From Escherichia coli (GTDB lineage: Bacteria > Pseudomonadota > Gammaproteobacteria > Enterobacterales > Enterobacteriaceae), in assembly GCF_017348835.2 (NCBI RefSeq), contig NZ_CP071375.1: a DNA stretch of 64,000 nucleotides. One strand, given 5' to 3'. Under the pieces are notes generated by a model. That model saw only the letters and a program-made list of their open reading frames with translations, was not told where the DNA came from and did not search any database. Below, in pieces: positions 52,320 to 52,340 of this stretch; the stretch's first letter is position 1, and each line of letters begins with the position of its first letter. The position numbers and the translations under genes were made by a program.

Positions 52320-52340
52320 CCCTCTCCCTCAGGGAGAGGG
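52320..52340 (+). other. 21-nt palindrome ccctctccct-c-agggagaggg in the deoB-deoD spacer; probable RNA hairpin
   Basis: 10-bp perfect inverted arms seen directly in sequence. Confidence 0.5.

Follow-up and report, generated by a model that had tools for sequence, protein, structure and literature searches.

Palindromic repeats transcribed between the genes of an operon can be more than debris, and REP elements, whose consensus palindrome is of the GCCGGATG...CATCCGGC type, act in malEFG as intercistronic stem-loops that stabilise the mRNA upstream of them. Another repeat of the spaces between genes goes by the names BoxC and PIT, which reportedly trace back to Bachellier et al. in the 1990s and to Hoyne et al. 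in 2000. Now catalogued as TMECO, with BoxC and PIT (potential intrastrand triplex) as its earlier names, this family has the consensus 5'-CCCTCNCCC-N3-6-GGGNGAGGG-N3-GGGNGAGGG-3' (PMC4666352, Holder et al. 2015), a description that tolerates one mismatch, and a published BoxC size of 50-56 bp (PMC2267715). Oligonucleotides of the consensus have been shown to form a triplex by the G-rich strand in vitro, presence or absence from strain to strain is typical of BoxC loci, and no link has been found between the position of TMECO copies and gene regulation (PMC4666352). The same paper, citing Hoyne and Maher 2002, reports that PIT elements showed neither promoter nor terminator activity and left RNA polymerase unaffected. 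A literature search for a role of BoxC in mRNA turned up repeat surveys only. Here we consider a palindrome lying between deoB and deoD of Escherichia coli, for which comparison of sequences makes it essentially settled that it is the hairpin core of a dispersed BoxC/PIT/TMECO copy and not a locus-specific signal.

The window analysed is a stretch of 64,000 nucleotides of E. coli DNA (contig NZ_CP071375.1), in which the names deoB and deoD are those that RefSeq gives to the genes on identical DNA, found in E. coli PE164 as in thousands of further genomes. Its deoB-deoD spacer is 79 nt long and contains the perfect palindrome CCCTCTCCCT-C-AGGGAGAGGG, with 10-nt arms about a 1-nt centre, exactly as the original prediction had read it and exactly where it had been placed, between the deoB stop codon and the ribosome-binding site of deoD (Table 1). 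The pattern occurs once in the window, where shuffling (100 shuffles) leads one to expect 0.00 occurrences, and the whole 64 kb has only three perfect inverted repeats whose arms reach 10 nt or more across a gap of 12 nt or less. The 10-bp arms are a property of the DNA sequence: the tenth pair, T:A, owed to the replacement of A by T in the loop of an ordinary 9+3+9 BoxC hairpin, cannot form across a 1-nt loop and makes the RNA fold no more stable. Elsewhere in the window, a perfect hairpin with 11-nt arms (AAAGCCAGTCC/GGACTGGCTTT) at 43763-43787 is followed by TTTTG and looks like an ordinary intrinsic terminator, and an AT-rich imperfect palindrome at 37188-37233, with 26-nt arms and GATAA/TTATC words, resembles a Fur box when judged by eye.

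Table 1. Features in and around the deoB-deoD spacer, in coordinates of the window
Feature	Position	Strand	Remarks
deoB (phosphopentomutase)	51065..52288	+	upstream gene; stop TGA 52286-52288; ORF list, RefSeq annotation of identical DNA
Smaller 5' RNA hairpin GGGUG...CACCC	52293..52316	+	predicted
BoxC / PIT / TMECO repeat, 53 bp	52295..52347	- (G-rich consensus strand)	four-locus alignment, blastn
Triplex-motif core CCCTCTCCC-TGA-GGGAGAGGG-CCG-GGGTGAGG(T)	52308..52340	-	type B, one mismatch at 52308
Main RNA hairpin	52319..52341	+	predicted; 9 G-C/A-U pairs plus closing G-U, loop UCA; -19.6 kcal/mol, z = -3.6
Reported palindrome	52320..52340	.	hairpin part of the BoxC element
deoD Shine-Dalgarno AAGGA	52356-52360	+	starts 14 nt past the hairpin end (52341); not occluded
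deoD (purine-nucleoside phosphorylase)	52368..53087	+	downstream gene; ATG at 52368; ORF list, RefSeq annotation
Terminator-like hairpin and T-run	53119..53146	+	after deoD; likely operon end; terminator scan

Membership of the BoxC family is directly demonstrated, by the consensus and by homology that reaches past it. The pattern CCCTCNCCCN{3,6}GGGNGAGGGNNNGGGNGAGG has a minus-strand match at 52340..52309 where none is expected, and the consensus is followed in all but its last base, which at 52308 is T on the minus strand where the consensus has G. This change, C to A on the plus strand, breaks the last base of the third block and is known only from the lineage of the window; the CCG of the second loop makes the element one of type B. 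Conservation extends beyond the triplex core to a 53-bp block shared by four loci, its limits having been set by alignment with the copies at ilvC-ppiC (K-12), mrcB-hrpB and flgG-flgH, and the whole of this block falls in the interval between the deoB stop and the deoD start, an intergenic location. A blastn query with the 79-nt spacer hit 16,226 places spread over 4,239 complete E. coli genomes (median 4, maximum 10 per genome), and K-12 has BoxC copies at other loci and none at deoB-deoD. The original prediction missed this membership: the palindrome belongs to a dispersed repeat family that recurs at unrelated loci, and is not specific to deo. Nor is this copy new, since its site is in the published catalogue: a search by sequence of Table S8 of PMC4666352 found it as TMECO no. 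108 (NC_009801 4959919-4959886, strain E24377A), between the E24377A genes deoB (end 4959867) and deoD (start 4959947), at a locus where 111 nt match the window in all but one base, and the same locus in strain 55989 is TMECO no. 257 (PMC4666352). The covariance models of Rfam 15, run over 48000-56000 on both strands at E <= 1, gave no match. The REP words GCCGGATG and CATCCGGC are absent from 52286-52367 and present in the deoC-deoA spacer, where two REP-like palindromes lie at 49579-49607 and 49623-49654 (gcctgatgcgctgcgcttatcaggcctac and gtaggccggataaggcgtagacgcatccggca); with these in deoC-deoA and BoxC in deoB-deoD, stem-loops of repeat families occupy two of the three deo intercistronic spacers, and deoA-deoB has none.

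Since the consensus strand of the element is the minus strand, it is the C-rich strand that the deo mRNA carries. Folding calculations support the earlier claim of a stable hairpin in the deo transcript: the whole element is predicted to form two adjacent hairpins at -30.6 kcal/mol (z = -3.8), of which the main one is the core listed in Table 1. Versions of this core with a TCA or an ACA loop both fold at -19.6 kcal/mol with a 3-nt loop, and the arm of the 5' hairpin pairs perfectly, as GGGTGAGG/CCTCACCC, in copies from Leclercia and Enterobacter (L018, L035). Likewise sound was the remark that the palindrome has no T run and does not look like a terminator, for a terminator scan does not flag it; the stem is present, its tail is TGAAAACATG, no T/U-tract follows, and downstream of the second stem stands GAAAACAUG instead of a U-tract. 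In K-12 the hairpin of the spacer (L001:397-418, K-12 DH1) is flagged as terminator-like by the same kind of scan, folds at -14.7 kcal/mol and is followed by TTTGTTATGT, which would fit a leaky terminator within the deo operon of K-12. A scan for promoter-like sites upstream of deoD found none, and the DeoD accession WP_000224877.1 is annotated in strains with either form of the spacer. Given an element with no U-tract and a deoD with no promoter-like site ahead of it, RNA polymerase would be expected to read through the element to express deoD. Control of deoD by the sRNA GlnZ, which is confined to Salmonella and acts at the first codons (PMC9731577), is irrelevant to the element.

Two forms of the spacer divide E. 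coli between them, and the division is seen directly in complete genomes: 2,489 of 5,426 have a BoxC-type spacer, 2,935, including K-12 and O157:H7, have a K-12-type spacer without BoxC, and the two classes together account for 5,424. Comparison with K-12, which had been put forward as a check on the original prediction, was thus informative, K-12 being without the palindrome, and the uniform sequence across all strains that had been named as telling against the prediction is not what this polymorphic site presents. The K-12-type spacer is 56 nt long and holds the hairpin GGGCGGAG-CGTTGA-CTCCGCC with TTTGTTATGT after it; it comes in two sub-variants, one of 1,689 records with 99% identity or better to the query from K-12, the other of 1,239 with 90-95%. 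The alleles have nothing in common beyond ..TGAT..TGG at the left end and ATGT..AAGGATAAAACAATG at the right, and a 53-bp block in place of a 25-bp block between such short common flanks points to replacement; a simple insertion was rejected as a model, because the exchange of blocks (..TGG / ATGT..) leaves no target-site duplication visible. Strain 90-9281 has the K-12-type spacer, yet the last 389 nt of its deoB are identical to the window. The occurrence of just two main allele classes in 5,424 genomes indicates alleles that are old, stable and shuffled by recombination rather than the products of ongoing instability. Within the BoxC class, the loop is TCA (10-nt arms, as in the window) in about 1,493 genomes and ACA (9-nt arms) in about 932, the latter being the form found in other BoxC copies and in other genera; the C-to-A change at 52308 is rare, and spacers at least 99% identical to that of the window number only 2 of the 2,489. 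In E. coli MB53 an IS200C (L004 ~779-1491) sits in a K-12-type spacer, directly 3' of the hairpin and T-tract, and parts deoB from deoD.

The same spacer was collected from other Enterobacteriaceae by scanning species-representative genomes with a degenerate DeoB C-terminus pattern, which required an identical DeoB C-terminus and returned 46 loci, Salmonella, Shigella and E. fergusonii not being in the sample. A simple GGGCGG/CCGCCC hairpin occupies 13 spacers (E. albertii, E. whittamii, Kosakonia, Franconibacter), BoxC alone 11 (Escherichia sp. E1V33, Pseudocitrobacter, Phytobacter, C. freundii, several Enterobacter), BoxC together with a REP-like palindrome 10, one copy being degenerate (Leclercia, Lelliottia, Huaxiibacter, Enterobacter), REP-like palindromes only 11 and another palindrome 1, where REP-like denotes a resemblance judged by eye. 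Whatever its kind, a strong stem-loop stands just 3' of the deoB stop in 46 of 46 species and in the window. Minimum free energies for the 60 nt past the deoB stop run from -15.7 to -35.1 kcal/mol (mean -25.3, 47 sequences), and those for the 60 nt ahead of the deoB start, at the deoA-deoB junction, from -2.6 to -14.4 kcal/mol (mean -6.2, n = 31). All 21 of the spacers that bear BoxC have it facing one way, so that the mRNA carries the C-rich strand, and across genera 42-50 of its 53 bases are identical to the window copy, as against 57-73% identity at third codon positions of the flanks. The stem of the simple hairpin, GGGCGG/CCGCCC, keeps seven pairs across 12 species belonging to several genera, one of the pairs having changed in compensatory fashion (GC to AU), and the short GC hairpin of the K-12 type is probably the ancestral state. 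Five loci of Enterobacter and relatives (L011, L027, L038, L049, L054) have about 1.5 BoxC copies in tandem, a truncated copy without the G-rich arm preceding a full one. Two further loci, L016 and L050, have GGGGGCGG... as the left end of BoxC where others have GGGTGCGG...; this end resembles a hybrid between BoxC and the ancestral GGGCGG hairpin's left arm, and may hint at the route of replacement.

How, then, should the element be understood? We think it likely that the deoB-deoD BoxC is a passenger repeat whose local effect, if it has one, is passive. The palindrome is the Watson-Crick hairpin of a GC-rich BoxC of ~53 bp, and an E. coli genome holds some two dozen such copies between its genes. 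On this account the repeat would be propagated and kept at the level of the DNA; here it fills the spacer in place of a short GC hairpin and T-tract and, being transcribed within the deoCABD mRNA, should fold into two adjacent hairpins. The only likely local effect would be the loss of the ancestral terminator-like T-tract with a stable stem-loop kept, one that could block 3'-to-5' exonucleases, so that a passive role in mRNA stability, as a barrier to decay, is possible. The dedicated role in mRNA processing or protein binding that the original prediction had favoured finds no support; PIT elements are reported to be without effect on RNA polymerase (PMC4666352, citing Hoyne and Maher 2002). 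Against the passenger account stand the stem-loop in all 46 species, the uniform orientation of BoxC and its high identity across genera. A more tentative and less likely proposal is that the element is a functional intercistronic RNA stem-loop, BoxC having substituted for the ancestral hairpin, and that selection keeps some such structure there: once an endonuclease had cut the message in the AU-rich stretch at 52343-52367, downstream, or inside deoD, PNPase and RNase II would be halted at the BoxC hairpins, and the upstream deoCAB message would be stabilised. That three unrelated element types supply a strong stem-loop, that the deoA-deoB junction of these genomes lacks structure, that the simple stem is conserved across genera down to a compensatory pair and that the Shine-Dalgarno sequence is left free are all consistent with it. 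However, REP and BoxC pile up in many permissive spacers, and a possible preference of theirs for hairpin sites would mimic the pattern without selection; a single BoxC insertion would give a common orientation by descent; and no link between TMECO position and gene regulation was found (PMC4666352). A broader version, in which the spacer is under selection for any stable stem-loop and an ancestral hairpin or attenuator was repeatedly replaced by BoxC or REP, strikes us as doubtful. Were it true, the two near-equal alleles (46% of genomes having BoxC and no U-tract, 54% a hairpin and U-tract) would differ measurably in how strongly deoB is expressed relative to deoD, and an RNA-level function for BoxC would have been demonstrated for the first time.

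The polymorphism of the spacer, with both alleles on identical flanks, could also reflect structure in the DNA itself, if the G-rich minus strand formed a purine-motif triplex, or the palindrome extruded, when single-stranded in replication or repair, and so provoked local rearrangement, a DNA-level source of instability of the kind that Holder et al. propose. We regard this as unlikely. TMECO oligonucleotides do form a stable triplex in vitro and variability between strains is greater around TMECO loci (PMC4666352), and Enterobacter offers partial tandem duplications of BoxC; yet duplex DNA gave no triplex signal, nor did DMS footprinting in vivo (PMC4666352), the third-block mismatch at 52308 should weaken any triplex, and there are just two main allele classes in 5,424 genomes. 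A hairpin that acted as an intrinsic terminator or attenuator between deoB and deoD is a very improbable reading, for all that its stem is GC-rich and stable at -19.6 kcal/mol and that the alternative allele here has the look of a terminator: GAAAACAUG past the stem supplies no U-tract, the hairpin goes unflagged in the scan, a promoter-like site for deoD alone is lacking, and PIT elements are reported to have shown no terminator activity (PMC4666352). The missing T-tract and that reported lack of activity led us to reject it. Perfect dyad symmetry is all that would recommend the palindrome as the operator of a dimeric protein regulating deoD, and we judge this extremely improbable, since unrelated loci carry the sequence too, the arms of the ancestral form are 9 nt long about a 3-nt loop, and no promoter-like site is near. 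As a protein site it was rejected, being part of a multi-copy repeat that K-12 lacks at this position; we know of no described BoxC-binding protein.

As a discovery the finding matters little, for the family was described in the 1990s and this single copy stands at a site already in a published catalogue. Its practical value is modest and lies in what E. coli has made of the site: a natural allelic pair, divided roughly half and half between BoxC and a terminator-like hairpin, with near-identical flanks and in a well-studied operon. Such a pair is a test bed for an effect of BoxC at the RNA level, a question some 30 years old.

Set beside known systems, the element has something of each of four. 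With H-DNA, or intramolecular triplex, it shares three polypurine or polypyrimidine blocks able to fold back twice; it differs in that no such structure was detected in duplex DNA or in vivo (PMC4666352), and in that the deo mRNA has the C-rich strand, whose pyrimidine-motif triplex would need protonation of cytosine. Like an intrinsic (Rho-independent) terminator it has a GC-rich stem-loop, itself stable, right behind a stop codon; it departs from that form in having no T/U-tract past the stem, whereas the K-12 allele, GGGCGGAG-CGTTGA-CTCCGCC-TTTGTT, matches it. The likeness to the REP/BIME stabilisers, of which malE-malF is an example, is that of a GC-rich, multi-copy extragenic palindrome transcribed within an operon and lacking a U-tract, with a stem that, by analogy, could block 3' exonucleases; the two even share a site, as REP-like palindromes fill the deoB-deoD spacer in other genera and the deoC-deoA spacer in the window. 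The REP/BIME family is nevertheless unrelated to BoxC in sequence, and for BoxC a stabilising effect is only hypothetical. It is with BoxC/PIT/TMECO that the agreement is fullest: the fit to the consensus (type B, CCG loop), some 53 bp of homology, the intergenic location, the many copies and the strain-dependent presence are all those of the family, from which the window copy differs in the C-to-A change at 52308 and in a first loop of TGA (TCA on the plus strand) in place of TGT (ACA), the substitution that turned a 9+3+9 hairpin into a formal 10+1+10 palindrome.
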